Assembly: GCA_021817325.1 (NCBI GenBank)
Contig: JAKAVK010000022.1
Coordinates: 1,077 to 65,076 of the forward strand
From: Candidatus Micrarchaeota archaeon
GTDB taxonomy: Archaea > Micrarchaeota > Micrarchaeia > Micrarchaeales > CABMGC01
Direction of reading: 5' to 3'
DNA length: 64,000 bases
The position numbers and the translations under genes were made by a program. Positions 4,945-48,270 of the stretch are shown piece by piece. Below the pieces are notes generated by a model. That model had not been told where the DNA came from. It worked only from the letters and a program-made list of their open reading frames with translations, and ran no database searches. The number at the start of each line of letters is the position of its first letter. Position 1 is the first letter of the stretch.

Positions 4945-4980
4945 GAACCTATTTCGCCATTAAGATTAATGAATTTGTTT

Positions 4981-16350: not shown

Positions 16351-16462
16351 CCATTCATCCCGTTTTTACACACGTATTAGAAGAATATATATCTTTATGA
16401 TATCAGAATAGATAGTATACGGGCGGCTGAGGCCGCAGATTGCAGCGCGCACAAGACCGCCC

Positions 16463-16807: not shown

Positions 16808-16880
16808 CGCATTGACATACTCATGCTTCGATCCAACCTCGTAGGAAACGGTTTTAAGGGATGAAAGCCTTACTATCATC

Positions 16881-17795: not shown

Positions 17796-18014
17796 ATACC
17801 AGTATTGAGTTAAGATTCTTGTTAACTGGCGTGATTATGAATAGCAGGCGATCTCTGATCCAGGTACCGCACGTCATAGTTAGCATGCTTATTTTGCAGA
17901 TGTTGTGGTTTATACAGTATGTAGGTATAGTACCTGCATAATGACGCACACATAAAAGCTCTTTTTGTTGGTCGTTATGCAAATACAAAACCTTAATGGT
18001 CGGTGCGTTTTGAC

Positions 18015-19892
18015 ATGGGTAGTAGCGTAGCTTATAGACGAAGCAGATCGGTTGATGGACAGATCCCCCATGGGGCGACAGAATCGATAGTACTGGGTCA
18101 GCGTACAATGGTCTTCGAATTGGAGGAAGTCAGGCGGCAGCTTGCTGGATTCAAGCCAGAGCCTGCCGAAGAGTTCGTGGGCCTGGTTAATAGCATATTC
18201 ATGGGGACTATTCACACGAGGTGGAGAGCAGACACTGAGAACATACTAAACGGCTTCGATAGGGAGCTTAGCAGCAAACTGGAAAGGAAGGAGTATGAAG
18301 AGGTGCATGGAGAGCTGCGCAGACTTGTAGGCAGTCTGGACACGCATAGGGATAGGATAACGAGGTCCAACAACGGATCCGGGTCCAAAGTCAGCGACCC
18401 CCTTTACGACGTGACATTTGATAAGATGGTCAGGGCGCTGCCATACCTACGGCGAAAGGTGATTGAGGTAGGGGAGAAGCACAGCTGCCCAGACGCGGCT
18501 GAAAGCACATCAAGGAAACTTGAAGAGTTAGGAGACACTCTATTACAGATGAAAGGCGACGGTGCACGCAAACTTGCTGCTGTGGTACTTGGCAATTGGT
18601 TCAGCGGATCGAGAAGGAGCCATATCAATGGCGGCACTGATGAATACGTTGCGCAATATTTCATGAATCACCACGACAATCCAGTCGCCACGATGTTCAT
18701 CGCGGTAACCAAACTAGGGCCGGAAGCCAGCCCCAGAAATGGCCCGGATATTTCAGAGCTTATGCTCTACGAGAGACTGGCTGCAGCAGGCTTCAAGAAA
18801 GTTGTGCTGCTTGATGAGTTTCCTACAGTCCAGGGCAATGTGAATCTCTTCGACAACAACAGATACGTTGATGAACTTAGGCAGATGATGAAAGGACGCA
18901 TTGAGGTAGAAGTGGTCCGATTTCCAGAGATTAATACCGAGAAGTTCGGTGGTGTCAGTAAGGCGGTTGACGGATATGTACACGGGCGTACTACCTGGGA
19001 GGAATTCGGCGCGCAGCTTAAGGCCATGTCAGACAGGCCAGGTGCAGCTGCAGAGCAGCTTGCCTCGGATATCTGGTTCAGCTTCCAGAACAATCTCAGG
19101 GCAGTAGTCAGATATGCTGGCAGCTTCGGCGGGAGGGATGCGGTACAGGCTGCGATTTCCGCAACTGCGATGAGCGTCTCGAAGGTCTCCCCAGGACCGG
19201 GTTACCATGACGACAAGCTCTACATCTCGGTTACAAGCAAACACGGAAGACTGCAGATGGGATCAGGTGACGCGCTGCTGCCTAACCACGGCACTGCAGT
19301 TATATATCCGGGCAAGGAAGGCTACGCATTCGCAGTTGCACCACTTTCTGATCTTGTGCAGATGGAGGGGGAGCTGTCAAAGCATTACGATATCATAAGG
19401 CTCGAGGAGAAGGAAGGCGGGAATTATATGGGATATGCACTGGTAGGCAAGGGTAATGAATTTGGCAAGGCCGATCTCAGCCAAGCGCTTCTCAAGTCGA
19501 TACGGCAGAAGGCTAACGCTGGCCAGTCTTGCGTAGGCCTCCTAAATGTACTAATACGTATGGGAGCGCCGAATTCGCTTGTAGAGTCTTACCTTATGAG
19601 AAAGGGCATATACACGGACTCTGTAGAGACGGCAGCTGGCGTTGCTGCAAAGCTTGTCAAAGGCAACATAGACGTAGACGCGGTAGCTATCGGCGTAATT
19701 AAGAGTGATGCAAACCCCATGGCAGTTGCAGACCGCCTACGAGTGATGGCTGAAAGCGACTCTACGATTGATGGCAATCTGGCCGGTTTCCGGAAACTGG
19801 TGGCCAAGATTTATCAAGGGATAGGTACAAATAGTAGCGTGATAATAAACGCTGCCGAGGATGTAGGCACCAAGGAGCTGCTGAGGGATTGA
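18015..19892 (+). CDS. hypothetical protein (625 aa); C-terminal two-thirds paralogous to next ORF, distant DIT1/PvcA-like motifs
   Basis: Track ORF 18003; I prefer ATG 18015, which has GGTG 8 nt upstream. The motifs 'FIAVTKLGPEASPRNGPDISELMLYERL', 'VVLLDEF' and 'YISVTSKHGRLQMGSGDALLPNHGTAVIY' are colinear with the ORF at 19895. The family assignment is from memory only. Confidence 0.5.
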   Translation: MGSSVAYRRSRSVDGQIPHGATESIVLGQRTMVFELEEVRRQLAGFKPEPAEEFVGLVNSIFMGTIHTRWRADTENILNGFDRELSSKLERKEYEEVHGELRRLVGSLDTHRDRITRSNNGSGSKVSDPLYDVTFDKMVRALPYLRRKVIEVGEKHSCPDAAESTSRKLEELGDTLLQMKGDGARKLAAVVLGNWFSGSRRSHINGGTDEYVAQYFMNHHDNPVATMFIAVTKLGPEASPRNGPDISELMLYERLAAAGFKKVVLLDEFPTVQGNVNLFDNNRYVDELRQMMKGRIEVEVVRFPEINTEKFGGVSKAVDGYVHGRTTWEEFGAQLKAMSDRPGAAAEQLASDIWFSFQNNLRAVVRYAGSFGGRDAVQAAISATAMSVSKVSPGPGYHDDKLYISVTSKHGRLQMGSGDALLPNHGTAVIYPGKEGYAFAVAPLSDLVQMEGELSKHYDIIRLEEKEGGNYMGYALVGKGNEFGKADLSQALLKSIRQKANAGQSCVGLLNVLIRMGAPNSLVESYLMRKGIYTDSVETAAGVAAKLVKGNIDVDAVAIGVIKSDANPMAVADRLRVMAESDSTIDGNLAGFRKLVAKIYQGIGTNSSVIINAAEDVGTKELLRD

Positions 19893-19894
19893 GC

Positions 19895-20935
19895 ATGACC
19901 TTAGACAAGAAGTTAGCCATAATACCAAGAGCATCAGTGACATCGTTCAAGGGCAGGGTAAAGCGCAGCATTGCCGATAAGCACATAATGGTAGTGAAGA
20001 AGGCAGTAGGCAAGCGGGAGATACAACGCATACTGGACACTGACGCGCGGCGCATGGTGAAGAGCGGGAATACGCTAAGAAGCTTCCTTGAGACCAACAA
20101 GGTTGCAAGGTACAACGGCTCTGTCGGAGAGTTTGCAGGGATGCTTAAGGGCAGGAAGACGCTGGACTTCCTGATGGTTACCTATATGGGTAAGATGTAC
20201 AACAACCTGAAATCGGATTTCAAGAATCCGGACCTTTCGAATCTTGTCTTTGTTAACCGGGTGAACGCGTTTGCAAGAAAGCTGCACGAGCTCACCGGAA
20301 AGAAGGTGCAGGTGACTATAGCTACTGAGAACGGCCTCTTCGACCGCGACGTATTGAGAATAAAAAGACCCCTGTACAGAAAGCAGCTTGCACAGTTGCA
20401 GAAGCTGATGGATGATTTTGGCATAGAGTACGTAAGACTGAGACCGCTTGACGAGTTCGTAGGCAGCAGATATCAGGGGGCATTTAGGAGGAGCGTATCG
20501 AGATTGAACAAGGATAGGGGCGCGCTGCCTGCTTCTGCCGATTTCAGGCCCGTCTTCGAGACGTTCTACTCGTCTTACCCATCCGATACGTTCAGGGAGG
20601 CGGTCGGCAATTACACCGATAGCAAGACGCAGGAGAGGATAGAGAAGTGGACGCTCGATGCACTGGTCAGATACATGTCATTCCATGCTGCAAGGTCTGA
20701 GACCGACTTTTGGGGAATCAACAAAGGATATATCAGATGCAGTGTGAGCAACAGGAAGGGGGTCCTTGTGTTTGAATATGGGGTGGGTAGAATGTCCCCT
20801 CTCCATGGCATGGCGGTTTATAGGAAGAACGGTGTCTTTACCGAACACTTCTACGATGTAGTAAACGCGTTGCCTGAGGGAAAGCCGCTGACCGTCTGGA
20901 TCTACAAGGACATGCCAGTATGCATAGTTGAATGA
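19895..20935 (+). CDS. hypothetical protein (346 aa), divergent DIT1/PvcA (isonitrile synthase family)-like
   Basis: ATG lies 3 nt after the upstream stop, with GAGGGA 7 nt upstream, suggesting translational coupling. 'NPDLSNLVFVNRVNAFARKLHELTGKKVQVTIATENGLFDRD' and 'YIRCSVSNRKGVLVFEYGVGRMSPLHGMAVY' follow the order PDxGE...SDGxVFxD...RLSIH...TPWH that I recall for Pfam DIT1_PvcA. Key positions are substituted. Confidence 0.5.
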   Translation: MTLDKKLAIIPRASVTSFKGRVKRSIADKHIMVVKKAVGKREIQRILDTDARRMVKSGNTLRSFLETNKVARYNGSVGEFAGMLKGRKTLDFLMVTYMGKMYNNLKSDFKNPDLSNLVFVNRVNAFARKLHELTGKKVQVTIATENGLFDRDVLRIKRPLYRKQLAQLQKLMDDFGIEYVRLRPLDEFVGSRYQGAFRRSVSRLNKDRGALPASADFRPVFETFYSSYPSDTFREAVGNYTDSKTQERIEKWTLDALVRYMSFHAARSETDFWGINKGYIRCSVSNRKGVLVFEYGVGRMSPLHGMAVYRKNGVFTEHFYDVVNALPEGKPLTVWIYKDMPVCIVE

Positions 20936-21173
20936 ACTGGGGTAAAACAGACAGTAACTCTCCACTTGCGGACCTTAATCTCTCATTGTTCATGCCCCCT
21001 TGTAAACTCGTTGATCTTCACGGCTAGGTCGCCATCGTGCATGTGCCTGGTCCCTGGCAGTCTGGTTATATCTTGCACCGCCGCAGGCATGGTATGCCAG
21101 ACGTTGCCCATATAGTAATTATATGTGGCGCTTTTCTTTGATTTTTGGCGTCTCTCGATTTTCGTAGGAAAGG

Positions 21174-21183
21174 TTTAAAATAA
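21174..21183 (+). promoter_or_regulatory. TATA-box candidate inside the 445-bp gap
   Basis: TTTAAAATAA lies 29-38 nt upstream of ATG 21212. Confidence 0.3.
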
Positions 21184-21211
21184 GGGGACTGAATGTTTGA
21201 ATAGTAATGTT

Positions 21212-21313
21212 ATGAACAAGACAGACGCCTTTGTATGCCGAGGTCTTGTGCCTGGCTGGTGCCTTGCTGGAGCGGCAGCATGCTTACCGGCGTGCCCTTA
21301 TGCAATTGCATAA
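21212..21313 (+). CDS. candidate mini-ORF, 33 aa, Cys-rich (MNKTDAFVCRGLVPGWCLAGAAACLPACPYAIA)
   Basis: Below the track cutoff, so I translated it myself. A TATA-like box sits upstream. A T6 run at about 21325-21331 follows it, and AGGTGA lies before the next ORF. Codon usage is somewhat atypical (cga, tta, att), so it may be non-coding leader. Confidence 0.25.
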   Translation: MNKTDAFVCRGLVPGWCLAGAAACLPACPYAIA

Positions 21314-21380
21314 TGGCTTGCTAATCTTTTTTGATGGTCTTTATGCGATACAAAACTATTAGGTTCAACCAGGTGAAGAT

Positions 21381-22637
21381 GTGGCACTAGAGAAGCGCAG
21401 GGGTTTGGCAGAGATAGTGTCTCGGAATGCGGAGAAGGTAGATTATCTGGCTGGAGTAGAGCCCACGTTTCCTGAGGTCAGGGATCTTTTCGGCGGCGTA
21501 CGTATGTTTGCATCGTTTTCGCATCCCGCACCAGATCCCATAGCAAGAGAGCTGTGGGGGCAGATCGTCTTGCTGGAAACGGCGAAGGAAGCAGGCCTGC
21601 TGAGGGATGGTGTACGCGTATCTGGCCACGCAGTATCCTCTAAGTATGCCGAGAATCTGGCATATGATTATGGAGTCCCGGCGCACTGGAGCAACAGGCA
21701 TGATCCTGGATACAACAGGATAGGCATGGGCAACTTTCCAGAGATCCTAAAGCCGTATATACCATTTTTCCTCCAGTCATTAAGGAAGACTTTGGATCTA
21801 GATACACTCGCCACAGTCACTGCAAAGAGCTTTGGCAGGGATGAAGAAGCGGCCCGCAGGGCGCAGGAGGTTGTGAAAATATTTGAGCCGTTGACCCCCA
21901 TAAGCAAGAAGGGCAAGACAGAAGCATTGCCTGGACTGTTAGCTGCAAGGTCGCGCGCATTTGACCTTATGGGAATAGACCATATAGAGGAGAGGGCGGC
22001 GTCGGGGCTCATGAAAACGGTCGCTAAAGCATTGGAACTCCTAGAGAAAAAAGGGCTGCCATTCTATCTGATGCCCTTGACGGATGAGTTCAAGGCTGGC
22101 GGCTACCTGCGTGCGATAGACAGCGAGAAGATACGCAAGAAGGTGGTAATAACAATGGATGGATCACAGCCTGTCTATACATTCGAGGACACTGTCTTTA
22201 AAACACCCGATGGCACTGTCCTTAAAAAGACAACCGAGGTGCGTGGCGACGAGATTTACGGGCTTATTGAATCCGGTGTTGTGATACCTACGGTGCCAAC
22301 CTTTCTGCTTGCAGTGATGGTAGGGCCACAGATACCGCAGATGGGAGGGAGGGACTGGAGGGCCTATGCGCCCCATCTGATAGACACTACGGTACAATGG
22401 ATCAAAGAATCTGGAAAACACGGCTACGACGCGGATTTGGGGAGGGCGTTATTCCTATGCACAGAGGGATACGATCCTTTCAAGGTCATATATAGGGGAA
22501 GGGATGGACAGCATCTCTCTAGGCATTTTAGCATGGGCTATGTGACAATGGGTGGGGATGAGATTAGCAATTCCCTGGTTTCGGATACGACGATAGTTGG
22601 AAAGTACGGCGTTGTTGGGGTATCTTTGAGGCATTGA
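21381..22637 (+). CDS. hypothetical protein (418 aa), possibly third member of the paralog set
   Basis: GTG start with AGGTGA 5 nt upstream. 'YLMPLTDEF' echoes the 'LDEF' motif of the two upstream ORFs. 'ALFLCTEGYDPFKVIYRGRDGQHLSRHFSMGYV' is only loosely similar to their C-terminal motif. Confidence 0.5.
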   Translation: MALEKRRGLAEIVSRNAEKVDYLAGVEPTFPEVRDLFGGVRMFASFSHPAPDPIARELWGQIVLLETAKEAGLLRDGVRVSGHAVSSKYAENLAYDYGVPAHWSNRHDPGYNRIGMGNFPEILKPYIPFFLQSLRKTLDLDTLATVTAKSFGRDEEAARRAQEVVKIFEPLTPISKKGKTEALPGLLAARSRAFDLMGIDHIEERAASGLMKTVAKALELLEKKGLPFYLMPLTDEFKAGGYLRAIDSEKIRKKVVITMDGSQPVYTFEDTVFKTPDGTVLKKTTEVRGDEIYGLIESGVVIPTVPTFLLAVMVGPQIPQMGGRDWRAYAPHLIDTTVQWIKESGKHGYDADLGRALFLCTEGYDPFKVIYRGRDGQHLSRHFSMGYVTMGGDEISNSLVSDTTIVGKYGVVGVSLRH

Positions 22638-22639
22638 GG

Positions 22640-23770
22640 TCACTTTAGCATTACGCCGTCCAGCTTGTCCTTAAGATGCTCCTTCTTCTTCCTGTGTTCC
22701 TCGAGGAATCTATTGATCTTCTTTGCGAGGTCGACTTTGTGGTCTCCTGCAAGCAGAGTGCCGTCACGCTCTCCCTTGAATATCTTCTCCAGCTTATTAT
22801 CGTCAGGCTCGAAGAGGAACTTGTTGTATTGGCAGACGGCGCACTTCTCCGGATCCCCGCCGTACTTCTTCTGCAGTTCTGCTGTCGCCTGCTGGCCTGT
22901 TATCGCCTTGTTCACCTTCTTTGCCACGACCTCAGGCGCATCGTCGAGGTAGATGGTGTTGTCAGGGTCGCTTGAAGACATCTTAGGGTTGCCCTTGAGC
23001 CCAGGCATGAACTTCGCGTGCATTATCGCAGGTTTATAGTATCCCATCTTCTCGATCGCGTTCCTCGCTACCCTGAAGTGCACGTCCTGGTCAACACCAA
23101 GCGGTATTACACAGGGGATGTTCCTGCCGGCCTCGACTGACTTGATGAATGCGGGCACCGCCTGCATGCTCGGATAGAAGAGAGTACCGACGTTCGTCTC
23201 ATTAGTGAAGCCATACGCGTCCTTTGTTATTGAATAGGTTATGTACTTTGCCACCCGTACCGCATGTTTGTAGAGTTTCCCGGCGTACTCGGTGTTGAGG
23301 AAGAGCCTTGTCTTCTTTGTGTCGAAGCCCAGCGCCATTATATTCAGCGCATCGGCATACGCGAGCTCATGCACCTTCTCGAGCGTCAGTTTTGGGTCCC
23401 TCTTTGCAAGGAATTTCTCCTCGTCTGGTATCTCTATGAGGACCTCTGCATCGAACCTCTCCTGAAGCCACTGCGCCATTACAAACGAGGGAAGGTGCGC
23501 TATCGTCATGCCTCCTGAAGGCGCTATTCCGGTGTAGATGTAGAACCTGTTACCCTTCTCGTACTCGTCGAGCAGCCAGTTCATGTCCCTGTTGGCAAAG
23601 AATATTTTCCGCCTTATCATGTAGTGCAGCTCTCCGGCGTCCTTTTTTATGCGCTCCATGAGCCTGTTATCGATAGGCTGTATGCCGAATCGCTCCTCGA
23701 GCCTGCCGTAATCTACCTGCCCCTCAACGTCATATGGTGTTACGCTAAAATCTCCAGGCATCTGAACCAC
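22640..23770 (-). CDS. trpS: tryptophanyl-tRNA synthetase (archaeal/eukaryotic type)
   Basis: 'FYIYTGIAPSGGMTIAHLPSFVMAQWLQERFDAEVLIEIPDEEKFLAK' is colinear with human/archaeal TrpRS '[32 protein letters not shown]...DDEKYL' as I remember it. The KMSKS-equivalent is 'KMSSSDP'. Confidence 0.85.
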   Translation of the reverse strand: MVQMPGDFSVTPYDVEGQVDYGRLEERFGIQPIDNRLMERIKKDAGELHYMIRRKIFFANRDMNWLLDEYEKGNRFYIYTGIAPSGGMTIAHLPSFVMAQWLQERFDAEVLIEIPDEEKFLAKRDPKLTLEKVHELAYADALNIMALGFDTKKTRLFLNTEYAGKLYKHAVRVAKYITYSITKDAYGFTNETNVGTLFYPSMQAVPAFIKSVEAGRNIPCVIPLGVDQDVHFRVARNAIEKMGYYKPAIMHAKFMPGLKGNPKMSSSDPDNTIYLDDAPEVVAKKVNKAITGQQATAELQKKYGGDPEKCAVCQYNKFLFEPDDNKLEKIFKGERDGTLLAGDHKVDLAKKINRFLEEHRKKKEHLKDKLDGVMLK

Positions 23771-23921
23771 ACAGCACTTAGCTATAAGGTGCCTGGTGTT
23801 TTAAGCGTTTCTGTCTTTTTACCGCTCGGTGTCGTATTACATAATAACAAACTTTAGTGTCAAAATTGGAATATTCAGCAAGCCTTAAATATCATGTAAA
23901 TCAGGAAAGCATGTGAGAAAC

Positions 23922-24077
23922 ATGATCTACTCAGGATACGAGAACGGGCACTACTATGTCAGAATAACGAGCGATGTCAAACTGCTTGACGTGCTTGGCA
24001 TGCAGTACAGCGGCTTCAAGTTCCTGGGAGAGTACATGCTCTTCCTTAAGAGAAGGCAGACGATCTCCAACTCCTAG
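23922..24077 (+). CDS. candidate small protein, 51 aa (MIYSGYENGHYYVRITSDVKLLDVLGMQYSGFKFLGEYMLFLKRRQTISNS)
   Basis: Below the track cutoff, so I translated it myself. Codon usage resembles the housekeeping genes (gag, aag, ttc, tac, ata). A TATA-like 'CCTTAAATATC' lies 25-38 nt upstream. I prefer it over the antisense track ORF 23931..24188. Confidence 0.4.
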   Translation: MIYSGYENGHYYVRITSDVKLLDVLGMQYSGFKFLGEYMLFLKRRQTISNS

Positions 24078-24312
24078 CGTACAGAATAATGCATAATGCA
24101 TAAAAAAAGGGGGTTGTACAAGATACCCAGTGCATGGTGTCGGTTTGGAGAATAACATCAGAAAATTGCCCGTCGGAGGGGATCGCATTGCAAGGCAGCA
24201 GAGTACTGAGATACAGATTTTGCTCAGAGGCTATAATTTTTACGGCATGCGGCTGGAGTCGGGCGCTTCGACAGCAAGTGGAGCAGTCGTGGTGCGCAGT
24301 GGCTTTTTGATT

Positions 24313-24633
24313 ATGGCAAGACGCCTTATAGATCGCGCCGCAGTGGATCAGGCCGGTTTGACCGAAGTTCTAAACGCGGCTAGGTGGCTAGCTCTGAAGG
24401 AGCTTAAAATATCACAGGAAAGCGGCATGGTGAACAGGAGGATCACTGCCTTGGAGCTTTGCGATACCACGGTGGCTGTTGCCGCACAGGCAGGACTGGA
24501 AGTGAAAGCAGAGAGGGAAGTTGGTGCTCTTGAACTGAAGGTATTGAGGAGATGGTTGGGCACAGCAGAAAGCCGGAATTTAAATAGCTTGCCACGTCAC
24601 CCAGCGGACAAACCGCCAGACGAAGGCGCATAA
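24313..24633 (+). CDS. uncertain: hypothetical helical protein (106 aa) or non-coding structured region
   Basis: This is the internal ATG of track ORF 24130..24633. The stop is followed by the hairpins GGCCG...CGGCC (24634-24660) and CCACA...TGTGG (24680-24693). Codon usage is atypical (gaa, ttg, cta), and long ORFs are open in several frames. Confidence 0.3.
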   Translation: MARRLIDRAAVDQAGLTEVLNAARWLALKELKISQESGMVNRRITALELCDTTVAVAAQAGLEVKAEREVGALELKVLRRWLGTAESRNLNSLPRHPADKPPDEGA

Positions 24634-24699
24634 GGCCGGTTGACCCAGAACAGTACGGCCCAAAGAGCATGGGGTTCTTCCACATCTGTGTGGTTATTA

Positions 24700-26358
24700 T
24701 TACCCGGGCGGCAGGTCGTAGTGCGGCTGCTTTACTAGGTTGTAGAATTTAACCCCTAGTTCCTCTTTTACCTTGGCAGAGTACTGGGCTTCCTGACCCC
24801 ACACGGCCCACCTCCTTACGAAGCGTTCCGCGTCTTGCTGTGAGCCGGACGATTGTATCCCGAGCACCTCCCTAGTCATCGATGTGACAATACTATGGAA
24901 CTTGTCGAAATCAACTGTGAAGAGGCTACCATCGAATTTGATTGCACCGGACTCAAGGAAGTAGTTTAGCTTCATCAGATTGCCCACATAGTGTGCGTCC
25001 CTTCCTATCCTTGGTTCAGTCACCGGAAGATTCCTCATAAGCCCGTCCTCCACCCATACCCCGAGCATCTCTTCGGGGGTATATAAGCCCTTATTCACAA
25101 GAAGGGGCATGTTGTACATTGCGAGTAAGTCCGCCTTGAGCTCCTCTATGGTGTTGTGCCATTTACCCAGTGCGGTAGTGACATCCACATTGCCAGTTGT
25201 CCTCTTTGGCCCTAGCGAGTGGCTCACTTCATGGCCCATGGTTGAGTTGGTCATGTTCTGTGTGCTCACGTATCTGTGCAGGCTCGGCTCCACCATCCGC
25301 TCCAGCATGGCGGGATCGGTCCTGAATCCAGCAATCACGTTGCGGAATATGAGAATCTTCCTGCCCTCTTGGTCGAGCACCTTCTCGTCATTTGGGAGGG
25401 TTTGCGCGATGGTTATGTGTGGCCTGTGAGCATTGTAGTCGCCACTCATTGCAACTATGTCCACCATAGAGACCGGCACCACTATATCTGACATCTTCTT
25501 TGCGTGTGACTGCGGCTGCGGCAGGTTTTCCTCGAGTTCCTGCATTAGGCTGGCATAGCCTGACAGGCGGGCCGATTCTTCCGGAAGGTTCACGGTTACC
25601 ATGCCTGCATAAGCTGCCTTCTTGCCCAGCACGCGGTCGTGGTACGTCTCCAGCGGACCGATTATGACGTCGAGGTGCTGTGCCGGGGTCTTGACCCATA
25701 ACACATCGCTCGGATAGTAGAAGTCGCTTGTAAGGGAGTCGCCTCTCGCACGCAGATATCTAGCAAGGCCGCTGTCCTCCATCACCGAGGCGGCGCTCCT
25801 CAGCGAGGCTCTTGTTTGTGAGAGGGTTTCCGCATACTCGTATGCGAACGGCGTTGTGCTTATCGATGTTCCGTTAGTTGATACTATGGTGGTCTCTGAG
25901 AATATTGGTGACGATGGGTCGGTAATTCCTTTAGCCTGCAGAAAACCAGCCATGAAGTCATCAGTTATGACACGGGCTGGGTCCCGATAATTGGTGCCGC
26001 CAGACTTCTCAGGGAGCGGCTCTATGCCCTCGAATAGGGGAACCGTTTCGCTTTTTGGCGTGATGGCAACCGGCCCGTTGAAGATACTGTACGCATCGAG
26101 ATTGGCCATCGCCACCTCGTTGCCTCTCTTAACATCGCTTACAAGCTGCTCGTAGACTTCGTGGCTCTGGGGATGATCCTGCCTGTGGAACAATTCCTCC
26201 ATGCTTCGGAGGGCCTTTGCCAGGTCAGGCAGCGCCCTGAGCTGGTCCTGGGGAACGTTGCCCAGATCCGGCTCGAATGTAAATCTCCTGAGCCTTGCTG
26301 GATTGAGAAACGTCAGATTTAACTCCTCAACAGGTCTGTATTTGAATCTTTCTGCCAT
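24700..26358 (-). CDS. zinc metallopeptidase-like protein (HExxH; DPP III/M49-like second motif)
   Basis: Trimmed from the track start 26466 to ATG 26358, which lies 4 nt after the upstream ORF stop. 'GHEVSHSLGP' is followed about 30 residues later by 'EELKADLLAMY'. Confidence 0.6.
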   Translation of the reverse strand: MAERFKYRPVEELNLTFLNPARLRRFTFEPDLGNVPQDQLRALPDLAKALRSMEELFHRQDHPQSHEVYEQLVSDVKRGNEVAMANLDAYSIFNGPVAITPKSETVPLFEGIEPLPEKSGGTNYRDPARVITDDFMAGFLQAKGITDPSSPIFSETTIVSTNGTSISTTPFAYEYAETLSQTRASLRSAASVMEDSGLARYLRARGDSLTSDFYYPSDVLWVKTPAQHLDVIIGPLETYHDRVLGKKAAYAGMVTVNLPEESARLSGYASLMQELEENLPQPQSHAKKMSDIVVPVSMVDIVAMSGDYNAHRPHITIAQTLPNDEKVLDQEGRKILIFRNVIAGFRTDPAMLERMVEPSLHRYVSTQNMTNSTMGHEVSHSLGPKRTTGNVDVTTALGKWHNTIEELKADLLAMYNMPLLVNKGLYTPEEMLGVWVEDGLMRNLPVTEPRIGRDAHYVGNLMKLNYFLESGAIKFDGSLFTVDFDKFHSIVTSMTREVLGIQSSGSQQDAERFVRRWAVWGQEAQYSAKVKEELGVKFYNLVKQPHYDLPPG

Positions 26359-26362
26359 TCGA

Positions 26363-26683
26363 TCACTCTTTGTTATTGCCAGTGTCTCTTCCGCCAGATA
26401 ATTTGAGACCTTCGAGCCTTTTCCTAACAGTTTGTATCGTATGCCCGAATGCCTTTGCCATCTCATTCGGGGTCATCTGTGCCTCGATGGCTTGCCTGTA
26501 GGCCGCATCTGGTACGCGCCCGGCATAGAGATGTATCATGTTTATCTGACCTTCCGACTCAGTGCGTTCCCGGCGCATCTGTGCTATGACCATTTTGTTG
26601 TGCCGCTGCGCGTAGCGCATGGCTTCCGCAAGGGAGATGGGGGATTGCGTCTCTGCCGTTACAGCATCGCGTCTGACCGCCAT
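26363..26683 (-). CDS. small HTH-domain protein
   Basis: The C-terminal 'MTPNEMAKAFGHTIQTVRKRLEGL' looks like a helix-turn-helix. It lies directly upstream of the peptidase-like gene on the same strand. Confidence 0.5.
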   Translation of the reverse strand: MAVRRDAVTAETQSPISLAEAMRYAQRHNKMVIAQMRRERTESEGQINMIHLYAGRVPDAAYRQAIEAQMTPNEMAKAFGHTIQTVRKRLEGLKLSGGRDTGNNKE

Positions 26684-26759
26684 TCAATCACAAAAGGACA
26701 TTATTTTTTCCACCTAATAAAAATTACCTGTGAAAGGCACGGCAGGCTTGCTGGATCTC

Positions 26760-27158
26760 TTAGCGTAGTGCGCGTTGAAGCCTCAGATTGAGTTCTCCTT
26801 CGAGCGACGCGCGCATGCTGCGCACGATCTCTGCACTGCTCCTTCCACGCATCTCATCGACCATCTGGGCGGCATCTATAAAGGCAAGTGCCCTATATGA
26901 CACCCCAGTCCTGAATTCACTCCTTGCGAGTCTTAGCAGCATCCGGAACGTGTTGTATTTCTCCTTTGCACCCCCGGTGGCTGCATATTGGACCAGCGTT
27001 TTGAGACCCTCGTTGAAGCTCTTGTCCGCAGCAAATGCGCTATTAGGATCCCCATGCCTTACCCTCTTTGCCTCATCAAACAGGTTGCGGGCTTTGAGCA
27101 GTTGTGGCAGGCCGTCATATTTACTGCCTACATTCGCAGTGCTGATGCTCCTCTCCAT
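26760..27158 (-). CDS. hypothetical helical protein (132 aa)
   Basis: Track ORF. A TATA-like AAATTTAATCG sits on the minus strand 28-38 nt upstream of the ATG. I recognise no family. Confidence 0.45.
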   Translation of the reverse strand: MERSISTANVGSKYDGLPQLLKARNLFDEAKRVRHGDPNSAFAADKSFNEGLKTLVQYAATGGAKEKYNTFRMLLRLARSEFRTGVSYRALAFIDAAQMVDEMRGRSSAEIVRSMRASLEGELNLRLQRALR

Positions 27159-27539
27159 ATTTTCTACCCATAGTCTTGAACAACGATTAAATTTGGGATC
27201 CGCCCATTTTTATACTTATGCTGCAGATATGTGGGCGGGCAAGGCCCATGTACTCTTTTGTTGTCGTAGGTTTCACTCTGTTTCAACGTTTGTGATCAGT
27301 TGGTGTTTGCCAGGGCCATCGGCCCTGTTGAGTAAATTGAATTCTGTTGCAATAATGGCGATTTTTGAAGCAGGCAGTTGGAAGTTCGCCGCAAGACTAC
27401 TTTTTTCTACAAAAAGCCCCCTTGCTAGGCTTGTATTGCTTGCCGTGCGGCCGGCAAAAAGTTATATAAGCCTTTTCTTGCAAAGAATGTATGATGCGTC
27501 TCAGTGCTAGTGCTTGTTTTACTTGCGTTAGGTGTATGA

Positions 27540-37160: not shown

Positions 37161-37264
37161 GGGCTCCTAGCGCAACGGTAGCGCGCCTGCATGGCATGCA
37201 GGAGGTTGCGGGTTCAAATAGGCACCTGAGGAATCAGAACGCCTTGAAAATCCCGCGGAGTCCA
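37161..37264 (+). tRNA. tRNA-Ala (anticodon GGC) with a 32-nt intron in the T loop (59/60)
   Basis: Hand-folded as GGGCUCC/UA/GCGC/AACGGUA/GCGC/G/CCUGC/AUGGCAU/GCAGG/AGGUU/GCGGG/[UUCAAA + intron + U]/CCCGC/GGAGUCC/A. G3:U70 is present. No CCA is encoded. Confidence 0.85.
37219..37250 (+). other. tRNA-Ala intron (BHB-bounded; register ambiguous by 1-2 nt because of AAU repeats)
   Basis: The 4-bp helix UUCA (37213-16)/UGAA (37245-48) is flanked by 3-nt bulges AAU (37217-19) and AAU (37249-51). The inner helix is AGGC (37220-23)/GCCU (37241-44). A distal CUGA/UCAG stem is closed by GGAA. Confidence 0.75.
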
Positions 37265-37399
37265 TTATATTAACAAGGCTATTAGGCAGGTTGCCTGGGC
37301 GTGGATCTGTGCGCTGCGCAGGGGCGGATGGTATCGCAGACAGCCGAAGTGGCCTGGGCAACCGTTTAATGCTAATCCTTTATTTGGCCGCAGGAGAAA

Positions 37400-37609
37400 T
37401 TACTCCCCAATACCAATGTTTGGATTTGTGCAGAGATACGCTATGGTGCTGCCCTTGTTCTTGTCTATTGGCCGCAGCAGTATTATATGCGGCATGGTGT
37501 CGGTCCTGTCGAGCAGGACTATGCGCGACATGTTTGCGGTTGTTTCATAGCTCCAGGATCTCTTCGCCACGTAGTATTGGAGGTTCTTTCCATTTGATGA
37601 TAATGCCAT
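37400..37609 (-). CDS. hypothetical small protein (69 aa)
   Basis: Track ORF. The minus strand reads 'CTTTTTAAATAGTT' 28-40 nt upstream of the ATG, giving leaderless-type spacing. The overlapping + ORF 37291..37677 is Cys/Arg-rich junk. Confidence 0.4.
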   Translation of the reverse strand: MALSSNGKNLQYYVAKRSWSYETTANMSRIVLLDRTDTMPHIILLRPIDKNKGSTIAYLCTNPNIGIGE

Positions 37610-37818
37610 TTCCTCACCGGCAACTGATAGGCCTTAACTATTTAAAAAGGACATTGAAATATTGCGGTAATGTTTAGGTTTTTCACGAGATTAATGCACA
37701 GTTTCTAGATGGGATCGGCGTGCAATACAAGTAATCCAAGGAGCATGGATCTGCAAGCGTGGCCACCCGCCCTGCAGATATCGGTAAAGACTACTTGACG
37801 ATTGCCTTGGTTGCAGGT

Positions 37819-39393
37819 TTATTGAGAGGTTACTAGTGTGTCAAGCGGCCTGCCGAGCACGGCGTCTATTGACGCGACCTTCACCCTGTTTCCCTTCCTC
37901 AGTGTTATCCTGTAGAAAGGCAGGTAGACAAGATCCGCGCTGACAACCACTGAGTCCGGAAAGAGCATCGATACCCTGTCCTTGGCTGCCTTTGCAAACT
38001 TACTGGGAAATCCGACTATACTGTCCGTGTCTGCAATTTGCTCGGAAACTGCAGGAGCGCTTGCAGCAAGACCAGCCTTTGCACGAGAGGGAGAGAATCT
38101 GTCCTTCCTGCGGTCTGCAAGACCTGTTCTCTCCAGCCTAGAAAGGCTCCTGCTCACCTGCGTATCCTCCATGCCTGTCAGCCTGACTATCTTATCAAAA
38201 GCCAGGCTGCTGCCTGTATTGAGTTCCTTTAGTACCTTGCGCTCGTTAGCAGTGAGTCTCAGCGGTTTTTCACCTCCGAACCAGCTCGTGCTTATCCTCT
38301 TGCCTATGCCGACCGCGTTCATCTTACTGTCTATCAGCGCGTACCGCTCCTCGTAAGTGCCAGATCTTCTCGTAGGCACCCTTACCTTGCATAGGACCAT
38401 GCACAGGTAGTTTCTTGAGATACTGTCTATCCTCTCTACCGCACCGCCGAAGACCAGGAACCTCTTCTGGGCTATACGGTTTGCATACCTCTTTGCGTCC
38501 TCCTCGGTCACGGTGCTGTCGATCACGCTTATGCGCACCTTCTCAGTTTGCATTGCAGGGGTGGATGCCGCAGTGCTTGCTCCGGCCTGCGAGCCCTTCT
38601 TCAGCATGGCTATTATCTCTTCTGGATCCCCGACCAGCGCCTCCTTCCTGATTCTAGGCGTTGATCCGGTGTGCAGCACCGATCTCTGCTTTATGTGGAA
38701 TGGGTCGTCGTATCCCAGGCCGAATGCGGTAAATTCTCCTGTGCTCAGCTTGGGTATCGCTAGCAGCCTCTTCTTGTCCTCGAACAGTATGTCTATGGCC
38801 CTTATGTCGTTCTCCGTAGTCAACTTGCCTATGAACCCGTAGGAGCACTGGGCCAGCACGTTCTTGCTTATGTTGGCAGGGCGCTGCGTTGCGACCATCA
38901 ACCCTATGCCACGCTTCCTGCCCCTTACGCTTATCTCCTCTATTGGATTCCTCTCCTTCCGTACCACCTGCGGACAGAATTTGTCGGCTTCCTCTATTAT
39001 GACAAGGTATGGACTGCGTATCTTGTCCTCAGTCTTGTATAACGAGGTGAGTATTGAATCGACATACTTGTCCTTCTCCAGCACCTCGGAGATATCGAAT
39101 ACTATTGGTACGTTGCCCTCTATGCTGCTCCTGAACAGCCTTGATGGGTCGGTATCCGTAGGCAGGTCAGCACCGTCTTCGCCAACCAGTATGATCCTGA
39201 ATGCTGACTTCAGGGATGCATACTCGCCCTCGGTGTCGATTATCGCGAATGGTAGCCCTGCCTTGCATAGCTCCTCCACTATGACCCCAACAAGATATGA
39301 CTTCCCAGAGCCGCTCTGGCCTATGATGCAGCATCTGCCGGTAAGCACGTTCTGTGGGTCGAGGTCTATCTCCTTGGCTATGTTTATCTCCAT
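37819..39393 (-). CDS. HerA/FtsK-superfamily P-loop ATPase fused to a C-terminal winged-helix region
   Basis: Walker A 'IIGQSGSGKS', Walker B 'YLVIIEEADKF' and 'MVATQRPANIS' (TQRP). The C-terminal 'LTANERKVLKELNTGSSLAFDKIVRLTGMEDTQVSRSLSRLERTGLADRR' is wHTH-like. Two similar beta-rich segments are 'RNYLCMVLCKVRV..' and 'DLVYLPFYRITLR..'. Confidence 0.65.
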   Translation of the reverse strand: MEINIAKEIDLDPQNVLTGRCCIIGQSGSGKSYLVGVIVEELCKAGLPFAIIDTEGEYASLKSAFRIILVGEDGADLPTDTDPSRLFRSSIEGNVPIVFDISEVLEKDKYVDSILTSLYKTEDKIRSPYLVIIEEADKFCPQVVRKERNPIEEISVRGRKRGIGLMVATQRPANISKNVLAQCSYGFIGKLTTENDIRAIDILFEDKKRLLAIPKLSTGEFTAFGLGYDDPFHIKQRSVLHTGSTPRIRKEALVGDPEEIIAMLKKGSQAGASTAASTPAMQTEKVRISVIDSTVTEEDAKRYANRIAQKRFLVFGGAVERIDSISRNYLCMVLCKVRVPTRRSGTYEERYALIDSKMNAVGIGKRISTSWFGGEKPLRLTANERKVLKELNTGSSLAFDKIVRLTGMEDTQVSRSLSRLERTGLADRRKDRFSPSRAKAGLAASAPAVSEQIADTDSIVGFPSKFAKAAKDRVSMLFPDSVVVSADLVYLPFYRITLRKGNRVKVASIDAVLGRPLDTLVTSQ

Positions 39394-39489
39394 CGGCTAG
39401 ATTTATCTACTTGATAGAATAAATAACCGCACGTAGGCAGAAAGGCGCACAGGGAAGAGAGCTGTGCGCAGATGCCGGGCAGGCTGCGG

Positions 39490-40359
39490 CTATGCGTATA
39501 TCTTCGGCTGAATTACGATCGTGCCATTGTACGGCCTGCTTCCTATCGTTACAAGGAATTCATTAACTCCCCCTGCGCAGGGACCGTCTATCCTCATCCA
39601 GTAAGTACCGTGTGCCGTGCTGTTTGCAGCCAGGCTTACGGTGAAGTTCAGGATCTCGCCCTCAGACACGTTGTACTTTTCAGGGGAGATGCTGATATTG
39701 ATACCCCGAACAGTATTGTCCGATGTGGAATTCACCGCAGCCAGGTATGCATAGTGCGTCCTGTTTGTGGTAAACTGGGCCGGGTTGTTGTTTAGCACAT
39801 TTGTGACCCTTTCGCTCACGTTGAATGTTCCTGACGAGCCAGTCACGTAGTCCGGTATCCCACCGTTGCTTGAATTGACGTAATACAAAGAGAAGCCATG
39901 GTATCCAGTTATAGTGCCGTTAAGGGAATAGGTCATCATCGGGCATGCTATCGCACCTGCACCGCCTGGCTGTATTGGTGTAGTAGATGCGTTAGCCTGC
40001 GGGGCCGTGGTTGTTATGATCGAGGGAGGCGCGCTACCGTTTGATCGCTGCGGCTGGCTGGTTCCCGTCGCGCCGTATGACAGTATCGCGTATCCGCCTA
40101 TCGCAGCGGCCACGAGCAGTATCACGATCACATATTTGGCCATTGAGACAGGGGGTGTCTGGCTGGCCTTATAGTATTTGAGCCTCTTGAAGTGTTCATT
40201 GTCCACCCTCTCAACTGCACCCATCTTCTGCAATTCCTCCATATGCTGGCTTACCGTTGCGGTCGAGAGGCTTAGCTCCCTGCTGAGCTCGCTTATGGTC
40301 ATCTGCCTCTTCTTGAGCAAGTCCATTATCTTCCTCTTTGTTTCTAGTGCTTTGCTCAC
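39490..40359 (-). CDS. membrane-tethered ArsR-type HTH protein with extracellular N-glycosylation-sequon-rich domain
   Basis: 'KRKIMDLLKKRQMTISELSRELSLSTATVSQHMEELQKMGAVERV' is an ArsR HTH. It is followed by the TM segment 'YVIVILLVAAAIGGYAILSY' and a Ser/Thr/Asn-rich ectodomain with many N-x-S/T sites. Confidence 0.65.
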   Translation of the reverse strand: MSKALETKRKIMDLLKKRQMTISELSRELSLSTATVSQHMEELQKMGAVERVDNEHFKRLKYYKASQTPPVSMAKYVIVILLVAAAIGGYAILSYGATGTSQPQRSNGSAPPSIITTTAPQANASTTPIQPGGAGAIACPMMTYSLNGTITGYHGFSLYYVNSSNGGIPDYVTGSSGTFNVSERVTNVLNNNPAQFTTNRTHYAYLAAVNSTSDNTVRGINISISPEKYNVSEGEILNFTVSLAANSTAHGTYWMRIDGPCAGGVNEFLVTIGSRPYNGTIVIQPKIYA

Positions 40360-40612
40360 GGAATCACATATTGGCTATTGCACTGCATGTTATAAAACGA
40401 TTGCACATAGGAATAGGTTTTTTATAGGTTCTTACTCGTCAGCTCTGTTGCACGTTTTTTTTTGCCTGTGAAGGTCACATTGTATGGTGCGGTAGCGCGG
40501 CTTCTGTAATTGCCCTGCCTAGCAGGCTACCGTTCGCGGCAGCCGTTTTATCTGGCGTGTACCTTATGGGAAGGCGGCCGCAGGACGGCGGCAAGCACCG
40601 TGGGAATAGCTA

Positions 40613-40620
40613 TTTATATT
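40613..40620 (+). promoter_or_regulatory. TATA-box candidate
   Basis: TTTATATT lies 27-34 nt upstream of ATG 40647. Confidence 0.35.
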
Positions 40621-40646
40621 TCATATATGATGTATCACTGACCAGG

Positions 40647-41744
40647 ATGGCAAAGGAGACGCAGAAGGGTTCCTTCACGGGTATGAGGAGATGGGGCCTT
40701 AGGGAGCTAAACAGCAGCTACATCAGGGGCATGCCCCAGGAGCTGAGCCTGAACAAGAGACCCAGGCTGGTGAACATATTTATCACCATAATAATTCTAT
40801 ACATAATAGTGGTGCTTGGATACTACCCGACATTGAAGGTGATGGGCCTGTATGGGGCGGGCAACACCATAGACTCACTTGGATTCGTACTAGTGGTCTT
40901 TGGCGCGGTCTCGATCTACTATGGCCTCAAGGTATACTTTTACTATCTGGCTGTGAGAAACACCCCGTTTTCCAGCATAGGCGCAAGCAGCAGATTGAGT
41001 GAGCTTAAGGTCAGGTTTGTCCCGGAAAGCGATGCCGCGCTGGTCGCCCCTGCATCGAACCAGAAGTGTGTATACTTCAAACTTGAGGAGCACGAAGTCA
41101 CCAGTGCCGGAGAGCATGGGGACGCGGTAATAGCCAGCGCGACAAAGGCGATCCCGGCCCTGCTCGCTGATGATACGGGGTACCTCGCAGTGGATTTCAC
41201 GAGTGTCGCATTGGTAACAGTATCCGAAAGGTATAAACCAGTCTTCAGCGAAGGCGTCAAGAGCAAGTTCCAGAGCGCCATGGACAGGTCCAAGAACGAC
41301 CTGCTCAGCATGGAGAACATGCCCGCGTCCACCTACGAGGAGATGTATGACATCTGGCAGAAGGGGCAGGATGCCAACCTTAGAACGATGCAGGGAGGCG
41401 TACGTTTCGTTAAAGGGGATGGATACGGCTCCATTCCGCAGCCGCCTGGCGCAGTGGCAGGGCTGCCCGACAGGAGAGTCTATTTTGTCGAATATATCCT
41501 ACCTCTTGATCAGGAATATTTCGCCTTGGGAGAGGTCAGGGACCTTGACAAGACGCTGAACCGCAAACCGGTCAAGCTACTTCACGCCGATCCGAATTAC
41601 AAGCTGTTCTCGCTGCTGCCCGAATCGAAGAAGGTATGGGCACAGAAAGATACGAAGACATTCATCGCCCTCTTTGCATTTGGATTCATAAACATAATAA
41701 TTGGCCTTACACTTGTCGCAGGCTACCTCGCCTACTTGCTCTGA
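40647..41744 (+). CDS. membrane protein, GIDE-domain-like (weak)
   Basis: Trimmed from track ORF 40557. It has two N-terminal TM segments and one C-terminal TM segment. From memory, 'LKVRFVPESDAALVAPASNQKCVYFKLEEHEV' resembles the core of the GIDE (MUL1-type) family. Confidence 0.45.
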   Translation: MAKETQKGSFTGMRRWGLRELNSSYIRGMPQELSLNKRPRLVNIFITIIILYIIVVLGYYPTLKVMGLYGAGNTIDSLGFVLVVFGAVSIYYGLKVYFYYLAVRNTPFSSIGASSRLSELKVRFVPESDAALVAPASNQKCVYFKLEEHEVTSAGEHGDAVIASATKAIPALLADDTGYLAVDFTSVALVTVSERYKPVFSEGVKSKFQSAMDRSKNDLLSMENMPASTYEEMYDIWQKGQDANLRTMQGGVRFVKGDGYGSIPQPPGAVAGLPDRRVYFVEYILPLDQEYFALGEVRDLDKTLNRKPVKLLHADPNYKLFSLLPESKKVWAQKDTKTFIALFAFGFINIIIGLTLVAGYLAYLL

Positions 41745-44298: not shown

Positions 44299-46169
44299 CC
44301 AAGATTATAGGCATAGACCTAGGTACATCAAATAGCGCAGCTGCAGTACTTGAAGGAGGCAGACCGGCACTCGTACCAAGTGCGGAAGGCACATCGCTTT
44401 ATGGGAAATCCTTCCCGAGTTATGTTGCATTCACTAAGGATGGGCAGCGTTTGGTTGGTGAGCCTGCGAAGAGGCAGGCTGTGGCTAATCCCGAAGGCAC
44501 CATCAGTGCTTTCAAGAGGAAGATGGGTACCAGCTTCAAGTACAGCATAATGGGCAAGGATTACACGCCGCAGGAACTCTCAGCGATACTGCTACAGAAG
44601 ATAAAGAAGGATTCTGAGGCATTTCTTGGCGAGGAGGTGAAGCAGGCGGTCATAACCGTGCCGGCTTACTTTGACGACAACCAGCGGCAGGCCACAAAGG
44701 ACGCAGGGGAGATAGCCGGACTTGAGGTTGTAAGGCTTGTCAACGAGCCTACAGCTGCAGCGCTGGCATATGGCGTTGACAAGACCGGAAAGGACATGAA
44801 GATACTCGTCTATGATTTCGGGGGCGGTACGCTCGATGTAACGATAATGGAGTTCGGAAAGGGAGTCTTCGAGGTGAAATCGACCAACGGAGACACGCAG
44901 CTTGGAGGAACTGACATGGACAATGCGATAGTCAAGTTCCTAGTGGACGAGATAAAGAAGCAGGCTGGAGTGGACATAAGCAACGACAGGCAGGCTATGC
45001 AGAGGCTCAGGGAAGCTGGAGAGAGGGCCAAGATAGAGCTCTCCAACACGCTCACAAGCGAGATAAATCTGCCATTCCTCACTATGGGGCCTGGAAACGC
45101 CCCGGTCCACTTCACCTATTCCCTCACAAGGGCGAAGCTGGAGGATATAGTACTGCCAATAGTGGAGAAGACCACGAAGCCGGTAATGCAGGCGCTCAAG
45201 GACGCAAAGCTCGAACCAAAGGACATAGAGAAGATAATACTTGTCGGAGGGCCAACCAGGATGCCGATTGTGCAAAGATACGTTGAGCAGCTGCTCGGCA
45301 AGAAGATAGAGCGCGGCGTAGATCCGATGGAAGCCGTGGCCTTCGGCGCGGCGATACAGGCAGGGGTTCTGACGGGCGAGGTCAAGGACATAGTGCTTCT
45401 CGATGTGACGCCCCTATCGCTTGGACTAGAGACGCTGGGGGGCGTTATGACCAAGCTGATAGAAAAGAACACGACAATACCGATAAAGAAGACGCAGGTA
45501 TTCACAACCGCAGAGGACAGCCAGTCTGCGGTAGACATACACATACTGCAGGGCGAGAGGCCGATGGCAAAGGACAATATAGAGCTGGGGAGGTTCCAGC
45601 TAACAGGCATACCGCCGGCAAGGAGGGGAACGCCGCAGATAGAGGTCACATACGACATAGACTCCAATGGCATACTCCACGTTACTGCAAAGGACAAGGC
45701 TACAGGGAAGGAACAGAACATGCAGGTGGTTGCACCAAACAAGATGTCTAGGGACGACATAGAGAAGAAAATAAAAGAGGCCGAGCAGTTTGCAGAGGAA
45801 GACAAGAAAGCCTATGCGAACGTGGAGGTCAGGAACGAGGCTGAGTCGCTGGTGTACAGCACCGAGCACTCGCTAAAGGAGTTCAAGGACAAGATACCTG
45901 CGGATGTCGCAAAGAAGATAGAGGATGCAAAGGCGAAGCTTCAGGAAGCCGTAGACAAGGATGATACGGATGCTATCAGGTCTGGAATAGACAACCTCAA
46001 GCAGGCGCTCCAGGACATAGGCGCGAGTGTATATGGCCAGGGTGCAGGCGGGGGTTCGGGTTCAGGGCCAGGACCCGACCAGAATGCAGGGCCGTCTCCA
46101 GGGCAGGAGGGAGGGGGCGGAGGCGGACCGGATGACTCGGTGAATGCAGACTTCAAGGTAAACAAGTAG
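44295..46169 (+). CDS. dnaK: molecular chaperone DnaK (Hsp70)
   Basis: '[15 protein letters not shown]', '[20 protein letters not shown]' and '[15 protein letters not shown]'. An ATGA overlap links it to the grpE stop, and GGTGA lies upstream. Confidence 0.96.
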
Positions 46170-48173: not shown

Positions 48174-48270
48174 GGGCCCGTAGCTCAGCTTGGATAGAGC
48201 GGCAGACTTCTAATCTGATGGTCACGGGTTCAAAAGTGCTTGAAAAAGCCTGAAAATCCCGTCGGGCCCG
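48174..48270 (+). tRNA. tRNA-Arg (anticodon UCU) with a 22-nt intron in the T loop (59/60)
   Basis: Hand-folded as GGGCCCG/UA/GCUC/AGCUUGGAUA/GAGC/G/GCAGA/CUUCUAA/UCUGA/UGGUC/ACGGG/[UUCAAA + intron + U]/CCCGU/CGGGCCC/G. There is one G27.A43 mismatch. No CCA is encoded. Confidence 0.8.
48235..48256 (+). other. tRNA-Arg intron (BHB-bounded)
   Basis: The 4-bp helix UUCA (48229-32)/UGAA (48251-54) is flanked by bulges AAA (48233-35) and AAU (48255-57). The inner helix is G48236-C48250 plus GCUU (48238-41)/AAGC (48246-49), closed by a GAAA tetraloop. Confidence 0.7.

Follow-up and report, generated by a model that had tools for sequence, protein, structure and literature searches.

A T-loop intron at position 59/60, with a bulge-helix-bulge motif, in a tRNA-Ala(GGC) gene of a Candidatus Micrarchaeota archaeon

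In Candidatus Micrarchaeum acidiphilum (ARMAN-2), 56% of the tRNA genes are disrupted (Fujishima et al., 2011, PMC3239211). Two of these genes are of particular relevance here: the pre-tRNA-Cys(GCA), in which a 13-nucleotide (nt) intron at position 59/60 is cleaved in vitro by the recombinant epsilon2 splicing endonuclease (EndA), and the pre-tRNA-Pro(GGG), which is interrupted at 53/54 and 59/60 by introns with the strict hBHBh' motif, i.e., a bulge-helix-bulge (BHB) with an outer helix (h) and an inner helix (h') (PMC3239211). Endonucleases of the alpha4 and alpha'2 types cut the strict motif at the canonical position only (PMC3239211), whereas the (alpha-beta)2 enzymes and the three-unit epsilon2 EndA, described for Ca. 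Micrarchaeum, cleave non-canonical substrates (PMC3239211; PMC12397907). Here we analyze a 64-kb stretch of contig JAKAVK010000022.1 (hereinafter, the window), in which a tRNA-Ala(GGC) gene at positions 37161-37264 of the plus strand is interrupted by 32 extra nt (37219-37250), inserted between bases 59 and 60 of the T loop. Judging from the sequence comparisons described below, this is very probably a functional intron-containing gene of a DPANN, ARMAN-2-like archaeon of the Candidatus Micrarchaeota.

The window gene and the ARMAN-2 cases belong to the same phylum-level lineage, are interrupted at the same point of the T loop and rely on the T stem for the outer helix of the motif. Like the introns of ARMAN-2 tRNA-Pro(GGG), the window intron is a strict hBHBh', and the 13-nt length of the ARMAN-2 Cys intron recurs among relatives of the window. 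The interrupted tRNAs of the window are different ones, tRNA-Ala(GGC) and tRNA-Arg(UCU), and the tRNA-Ala intron has a different sequence and a length of 32 nt; moreover, the ARMAN-2 Cys substrate has been cleaved in vitro, whereas the window intron is a predicted substrate. Introns at 59/60 and their enzymology were already published for this lineage in 2011, and it is in the tRNA species and in the intron sequence that the window gene departs from that description.

All arms of a tRNA-Ala are present at the locus. The acceptor stem is GGGCUCC/GGAGUCC, the D arm GCGC-AACGGUA-GCGC, the anticodon arm CCUGC-AUGGCAU-GCAGG with the anticodon GGC at 37193-37195, and the variable loop AGGUU; the discriminator base is A (37264), and CCA is not encoded. 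The G3:U70 wobble pair (37163 and 37261), the alanine identity element, is found together with an NGC anticodon. In the T arm, the two strands of the T stem, GCGGG (37208-37212) and CCCGC (37252-37256), are separated by 39 nt instead of the usual 7. Excision of a 32-nt block from any start between 37216 and 37220 gives one identical 72-nt product with the T loop UUCAAAU, and ARAGORN calls this spliced product a tRNA-Ala(ggc) with a perfect cloverleaf. The same 72-nt sequence occurs as an intronless orthologue in a related genome (L001:9758-9829), where its score with the Rfam tRNA model (RF00005, gathering score 29) is 66.8 bits.

In its unspliced form, the gene escapes standard detection. ARAGORN reports 0 tRNAs in the 64-kb window and also misses the unspliced tRNA-Ala when the intron option is set, whereas RF00005 returns a partial match of 25.7 bits, under the gathering score. 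A scan of the window with Rfam at gathering and permissive thresholds gave no other credible RNA family beyond the tRNA matches. A group I or group II intron was rejected given that the insert is only 32 nt long and that no Rfam intron family matches the window. A split or permuted tRNA gene was rejected as well: in the split and permuted genes of Nanoarchaeum equitans, Caldivirga and Staphylothermus the junction is likewise BHB-like and processed by EndA, but the exons of the window gene are contiguous and colinear on the plus strand, 32 nt apart, so that the insert is an ordinary cis-intron. An earlier, sequence-only reading of this DNA had proposed a tRNA-Ala(GGC) with all arms, the G3:U70 pair and the anticodon loop AUGGCAU, interrupted at 59/60 by an intron at 37219-37250 or in an equivalent register, whose removal restores the T loop; the excision and the ARAGORN call on the spliced form bear this out, and the covariance-model score that it named as a check is passed by the identical orthologue. 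Its description of the hBHBh' elements, from the T stem to the GGAA loop, proved exact, and its expectation that standard annotation often misses such genes agrees with the ARAGORN and Rfam results.

Folded together, the T arm and its insert make up an hBHBh' of the strict 3-4-3 form, with two 3-nt bulges on opposite strands flanking a 4-bp central helix (Table 1). The 5-bp T stem serves as the outer helix. The inner helix AGGC (37220-37223)/GCCU (37241-37244), also of 4 bp, directly abuts the central helix and is followed by a distal stem CUGA (37226-37229)/UCAG (37234-37237) that is closed by a GGAA loop. By the rule for BHB substrates, each bulge is cut after its second base, so that the intron comprises the 32 nt listed in Table 1 and its site is 59/60. 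With its 3-nt bulges, 4-bp central helix and flanking helices, the motif is identical to that of a canonical 37/38 intron, and the same enzyme family and ligation chemistry would be expected; unlike the canonical intron, it is located in the T arm rather than the anticodon arm. By analogy, the 59/60 geometry appears to mirror that of the canonical substrate, with a 5-bp stem, a 7-nt loop and an intron after the sixth base of the loop.

The motif is unlikely to arise by chance. The four central pairs together with an in-register 4-bp inner helix were obtained in 27 of 200,000 shuffles of the insert, and the whole pre-tRNA-Ala folds with z = -4.1 relative to shuffled sequences. A pattern that captures the T-loop-intron signature matches only two tRNA genes in the window, the tRNA-Ala and a tRNA-Arg(UCU) described below, against an expectation of 0.07. 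The BHB fold, at -18.3 kcal/mol, is within 0.1 kcal/mol of the minimum free energy (-18.4 kcal/mol).

Table 1. Features of the two interrupted tRNA genes of the window (positions are those of the 64-kb stretch).
Feature	Position	Strand	Remarks
TATA-like box TTTTATAA	37129..37136	+	Centre ~28 nt upstream of tRNA position 1; sequence reading
tRNA-Ala exon 1	37161..37218	+	tRNA positions 1-59: G3, anticodon, T-stem 5' strand, T-loop U54-A59
Central BHB helix, 5' strand UUCA	37213..37216	+	T-loop positions 54-57; partner 37245-37248
5' bulge AAU	37217..37219	+	Predicted cut between 37218 and 37219, from the BHB rule
BHB intron, 32 nt, UAGGCACCUGAGGAAUCAGAACGCCUUGAAAA	37219..37250	+	Between tRNA positions 59 and 60; removal gives a perfect tRNA
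Inner helix and distal hairpin (h')	37220..37244	+	Minimum-free-energy fold, pair probabilities 0.85-1.0
Central BHB helix, 3' strand UGAA	37245..37248	+	Intron positions -6 to -3
3' bulge AAU	37249..37251	+	Predicted cut between 37250 and 37251, from the BHB rule
tRNA-Ala exon 2	37251..37264	+	U60, CCCGC, acceptor GGAGUCC (U70 = 37261), discriminator A73
tRNA-Arg(UCU)	48174..48270	+	Exon 1 48174-48234, exon 2 48257-48270; ARAGORN tRNA-Arg(tct) once spliced
tRNA-Arg(UCU) intron, 22 nt, AGUGCUUGAAAAAGCCUGAAAA	48235-48256	+	59/60 site

In 16 related genomes, an orthologous tRNA-Ala(GGC) gene follows rpoA''/LSm; nine of these genes are intronless and seven have an insert. The exons of two intronless orthologues (L001 and L002) are identical to the spliced window tRNA-Ala, and exon 1 is 100% identical to both of these and to the intron-bearing L007. 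The seven intron-bearing orthologues are all interrupted at the same phosphodiester by other sequences of 13-35 nt, each of which forms the same motif. The window intron itself recurs, without any change, in a public contig of independent assembly (L087), whose identity with the window is 99.64% over 5.3 kb. The two sequences differ at 19 positions in this region, two of which are in exon 1 of tRNA-Ala (U38>G at 37197 and U47>G at 37206); the state of position 38 in the window is the one found in all orthologues. Sequence of this organism is present in ENA ERZ27237285 and in the Logan assemblies of DRR872537, SRR13205817 and SRR22746133.

Another 47 loci came from metagenome contigs that were scanned with a sequence pattern, and the orthologues and the scan together provide 42 distinct introns of 13-38 nt at 59/60 of tRNA-Ala(GGC). 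Across these introns the central helix is paired in 162 of 168 cells (96%) and is perfect in 36 of 42; when the 3' strand is slid by 1-4 nt in either direction, 0-2 perfect helices are left among the 42. Base 57 and intron position -6 form A-U in 16 introns, G-C in 19 and G.U in 2, with a mismatch in 5, and this covariation is significant when relatedness is ignored (Fisher p = 9e-10). Among intron cores of at least 20 nt, 23 of 26 fold better than shuffled sequences (z < -1.5). An inner helix is missing from many of the orthologous introns of 13-16 nt, which are therefore relaxed hBH or bulge-helix-loop (BHL) substrates; introns of exactly 13 nt are present in L034, L041, L045, L046, L051, L052, L075 and L079, and in L040, where the intron belongs to a different sequence family. 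The window intron belongs among the strict-motif introns.

Several observations weigh against this reading of the locus. The AU-rich central helix is marginal at 37 C: it is outside the minimum-free-energy structure and has a pair probability of ~0.5. Five splice registers, from 55/56 to 59/60, are equivalent in sequence and give the same mature product, and 59/60 is chosen among them because BHB geometry alone fixes the register. The 42 introns fall into families and are phylogenetically non-independent. The metagenome search pattern fixed UUCRAA and the AA of the 3' bulge (the last two bases of the intron), so that the conservation of these bases in the metagenome set is no evidence. Finally, the tRNA-intron-endonuclease families of Pfam (PF01974, PF02778) have no match among the 63 open reading frames (ORFs) of the window, which covers 64 kb of the genome; the Pfam scans of these ORFs used thresholds of 1e-6 to 0.05 depending on the batch, and unannotated ORFs were rerun at 1e-3 to 0.05.

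A separate question, which is compatible with the gene being functional, is that of the origin of the insert. It might be what is left of a mobile or integrative element, or the result of intron transposition, tolerated because the endonuclease removes it; such origins have been proposed for non-canonical introns (PMC3239211), and we regard this one as possible, albeit not the likelier course. On a rough neighbour-joining tree of RpoA'', the presence of the intron is patchy: it is found in the window, L004/L007, L032, L027/L028/L031 and L034, and is absent from a clade of six close relatives, from L033 and from the two Micrarchaeaceae loci L035 and L036. The intron sequences of neighbouring lineages are largely unrelated. 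The introns of the window and L032, in contrast, have the helix-forming ends UAGGC...GCCU in common but not the distal hairpin, which fits vertical descent with drift better than a fresh insertion. Besides, the 32-nt intron encodes nothing, and neither the intron nor the 3' end of the tRNA was found again when the window was searched for repeats (att sites, transposition). A similar state is known in Thermoproteales and other Crenarchaeota with (alpha-beta)2 EndA, where many non-canonical sites, often relaxed BHBs, rapid gain and loss, and proposed transposition are encountered, and the ARMAN-2 intron sites overlap the major sites of these archaea (PMC3239211). The Crenarchaeota, however, are an unrelated lineage with a heterotetrameric EndA, unlike the three-unit homodimer.

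That elements do target this tRNA gene is indicated by one locus (L003, 7382-8230). Here, an intronless tRNA-Ala(GGC) gene (7382-7454) is followed by ORFs for an 80-aa protein and for a 136-aa protein with a PIN_2 domain (E = 8e-24), and then by a 42-nt repeat of the tRNA (8189-8230) that extends from the anticodon loop to the 3' end, is 95% identical and spans position 59/60. The arrangement has the look of a small integrated cassette, similar to a toxin-antitoxin module, with the 3' half of the tRNA as its site. We offer, as a conjecture that we hold to be rather improbable, that, throughout the Micrarchaeota lineage, the 59/60 site of tRNA-Ala(GGC) and tRNA-Arg(UCU) is a hotspot at which introns turn over fast, and that the intron may guard an attachment site for integrative elements in the 3' half of the gene. 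Signs of turnover are the number of intron sequences, at least 42, which belong to many unrelated families, the fact that some genomes with 73-77% RpoA'' identity to the window have the intron and others lack it, and a switch between positions 59/60 and 37/38 in orthologous tRNA-Arg genes. The protection idea rests on a single case, since L003 is the only one of the collected loci with an att-like partial copy of tRNA-Ala.

It is very improbable that the intron, although real, is removed in one of the other registers (55/56 to 58/59), or is recognized as a relaxed motif (hBH or BHL). Such possibilities are suggested by the identity of the product in all five registers, by the weakness of the central helix, by the many orthologous introns of 13-16 nt that lack an inner helix and are necessarily relaxed, and by a published ARMAN-2 59/60 intron of the relaxed hBH type (PMC3239211). 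Nevertheless, 59/60 is the only register that places both cuts after the second base of 3-nt bulges 4 bp apart, and the loss of pairing upon sliding the 3' strand across the 42 introns argues for the same register. The relaxed alternative is at odds with the 4-bp inner helix of the window intron, which abuts the central helix directly.

The view of the locus as a pseudogene, with a neutral insert that is never removed and no working tRNA, might draw on the failure of standard detectors and on the lack of a splicing-enzyme gene in the window, but is hardly credible given that intronless orthologues of functional appearance have the same exons, that the insert is a strict BHB, that the same arrangement recurs in tRNA-Arg(UCU), that no further tRNA-Ala gene was detected in the window by ARAGORN or Rfam, and that 42 different inserts at one phosphodiester preserve the central helix through compensatory changes between A-U and G-C, which a neutral, unprocessed insertion would not be expected to retain.

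We return to the functional, intron-containing gene and the enzyme that it would require. RpoA'', encoded 1.5 kb upstream of tRNA-Ala, has 39 matching loci in the species-representative genome collection, with 55-77% identity, nearly all of them titled Candidatus Micrarchaeota, Micrarchaeia or Micrarchaeaceae; hence we assign the window to the ARMAN-2 lineage of the DPANN archaea. By RpoA'' and the literature, the host lineage is among those known for epsilon2 or (alpha-beta)2 EndA. The T-loop substrate itself implies a broad-specificity enzyme given that the alpha4 and alpha'2 enzymes cut only strict motifs at the canonical site. Both points had been anticipated by the sequence-only reading: its guess of an ARMAN-type host is correct, and its link of T-loop introns to broad-specificity endonucleases, including the three-unit ARMAN enzyme, agrees with the literature (PMC3239211). 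Because no EndA was found among the 63 ORFs of the window and the contig could not be extended from the window edges (the gene at the left edge is found only on a 2.4-kb contig and the ORF at the right edge has no record), we infer the enzyme of this genome from its relatives.

The most pertinent relative is a metagenome contig (VFSW01002402.1, L073) with a tRNA-Ala(GGC) gene at ~8820-8921 (-) that carries a 30-nt T-loop intron. The plus strand of the same contig encodes, at 4294-5505, a 384-aa three-unit EndA that aligns over its full length with the structure of the ARMAN-2 epsilon2 EndA (4fz2, E = 1.5e-148) and has Pfam matches to the N-terminal and catalytic domains of the endonuclease. 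The two genes are ~3.3 kb apart, and their co-occurrence lends indirect support to an epsilon2-type enzyme in the genome of the window.

For the window gene, the following pathway can be proposed. Transcription would yield a precursor of ~104 nt, in which U54-A57 would pair with the UGAA near the 3' end of the intron; this helix, stacked between the T stem and AGGC/GCCU, would complete the strict 3-4-3 BHB. EndA, expected to be of the three-unit epsilon2 type with broad specificity, would then cut the precursor at the two bonds predicted in Table 1, and an RNA ligase would join A59 to U60, with the 32-nt intron set free, probably as a circle. The resulting 72-nt tRNA would gain CCA and would be charged with alanine by alanyl-tRNA synthetase (AlaRS) through G3:U70.

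The second interrupted gene of the window is the tRNA-Arg(UCU) (Table 1), so that both tRNA genes detectable in the 64 kb have an interruption in the T loop. The BHB fold of the tRNA-Arg(UCU) intron, which is 2.3 kcal/mol above the minimum free energy, has a complete central helix UUCA/UGAA but an imperfect inner helix. ARAGORN does not detect the unspliced gene, and Rfam reports a gathering-level match of 32.9 bits at 48174-48232 that is a mis-alignment, in which part of the T arm is taken as the 3' strand of the acceptor stem. One orthologue (L007, 16819-16925, +) has a different 31-nt intron at 59/60, whereas in another (L032, 6456-6545, +) the T loop is uninterrupted and a 14-nt intron is found in the anticodon loop (37/38); ARAGORN mislabels the latter gene as a tRNA-Gln(ctg) with an intron. 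In the ~0.93 Mb of collected loci, 59/60 introns are present in tRNA-Ala(GGC) and tRNA-Arg(UCU) only; these loci were chosen around the two genes and give no genome-wide frequency.

Both tRNA genes of the window are thus invisible to ARAGORN and the Rfam tRNA model, or are mis-aligned by them. As standard tools miss these genes, annotations of Micrarchaeota will seem to lack tRNA-Ala(GGC) and tRNA-Arg(UCU), and inferences on genome completeness and codon usage will be biased. The locus also adds an example to the known co-evolution of broad-specificity splicing endonucleases with disrupted tRNA genes, and it opens no new question. Its added value is modest and lies, besides the failure of the standard tools on both genes, in a resource: the 42 different introns at a single site, orthologues that have the same exons but no intron, and a contig that combines such an intron with an epsilon2 EndA. 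The 42 introns represent a natural series on the requirements of epsilon2 EndA for T-loop substrates and on the gain and loss of introns.

The tRNA-Ala gene is located next to an RNA polymerase operon (rpoH, split rpoB, rpoA' and rpoA''), and an LSm gene ends 35 nt before it. A TATA-like box within the 35-nt spacer that follows the LSm stop codon at 37125 is a candidate archaeal promoter of the tRNA-Ala gene, as judged from its sequence and position. Between rpoA'' and LSm there is an ORF for a 319-aa protein with no Pfam match. Other archaeal genes of the window encode DNA polymerase D, the thermosome and the chaperones of dnaK-grpE-dnaJ. A match to the C/D box RNA SNORD75 at 45100-45132 (-) was dismissed as most likely due to chance, with 21.3 bits against a gathering score of 50 and a position inside the dnaK coding region.

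Just 3' of tRNA-Ala, a hairpin is predicted at 37289-37364 (+), with a 12-bp stem GGUUGCCUGGGC/GCCUGGGCAACC, a branched interior and a folding energy of -36.8 kcal/mol. Rfam gives no match for this strong hairpin, and the related loci do not share it. An ORF that overlaps the hairpin (37291-37677) encodes a Cys-rich 128-aa protein with no Pfam match and no homologue in the collected loci, and the entire 550-nt region downstream of tRNA-Ala, including this ORF, shows no conservation in related loci. Further downstream, 37819-41744 includes genes for a HerA-like (DUF87) ATPase (-) with a weak match to a TrmB-type helix-turn-helix (HTH), for a protein with an ArsR/MarR-type HTH (-) and for a 395-aa protein with a weak GIDE match. 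This could be a variable or integrated region beside tRNA-Ala; no flanking tRNA repeat was found around it. On the other side of the operon, just upstream of rpoH, a run of ORFs at 14734-27510 codes for proteins of 538, 629, 348, 418, 588 and 240 aa that have no Pfam family or only sub-threshold matches (E up to 0.05), and a class I tRNA synthetase of the Trp/Tyr type (22640-23770, -) is interspersed among them.

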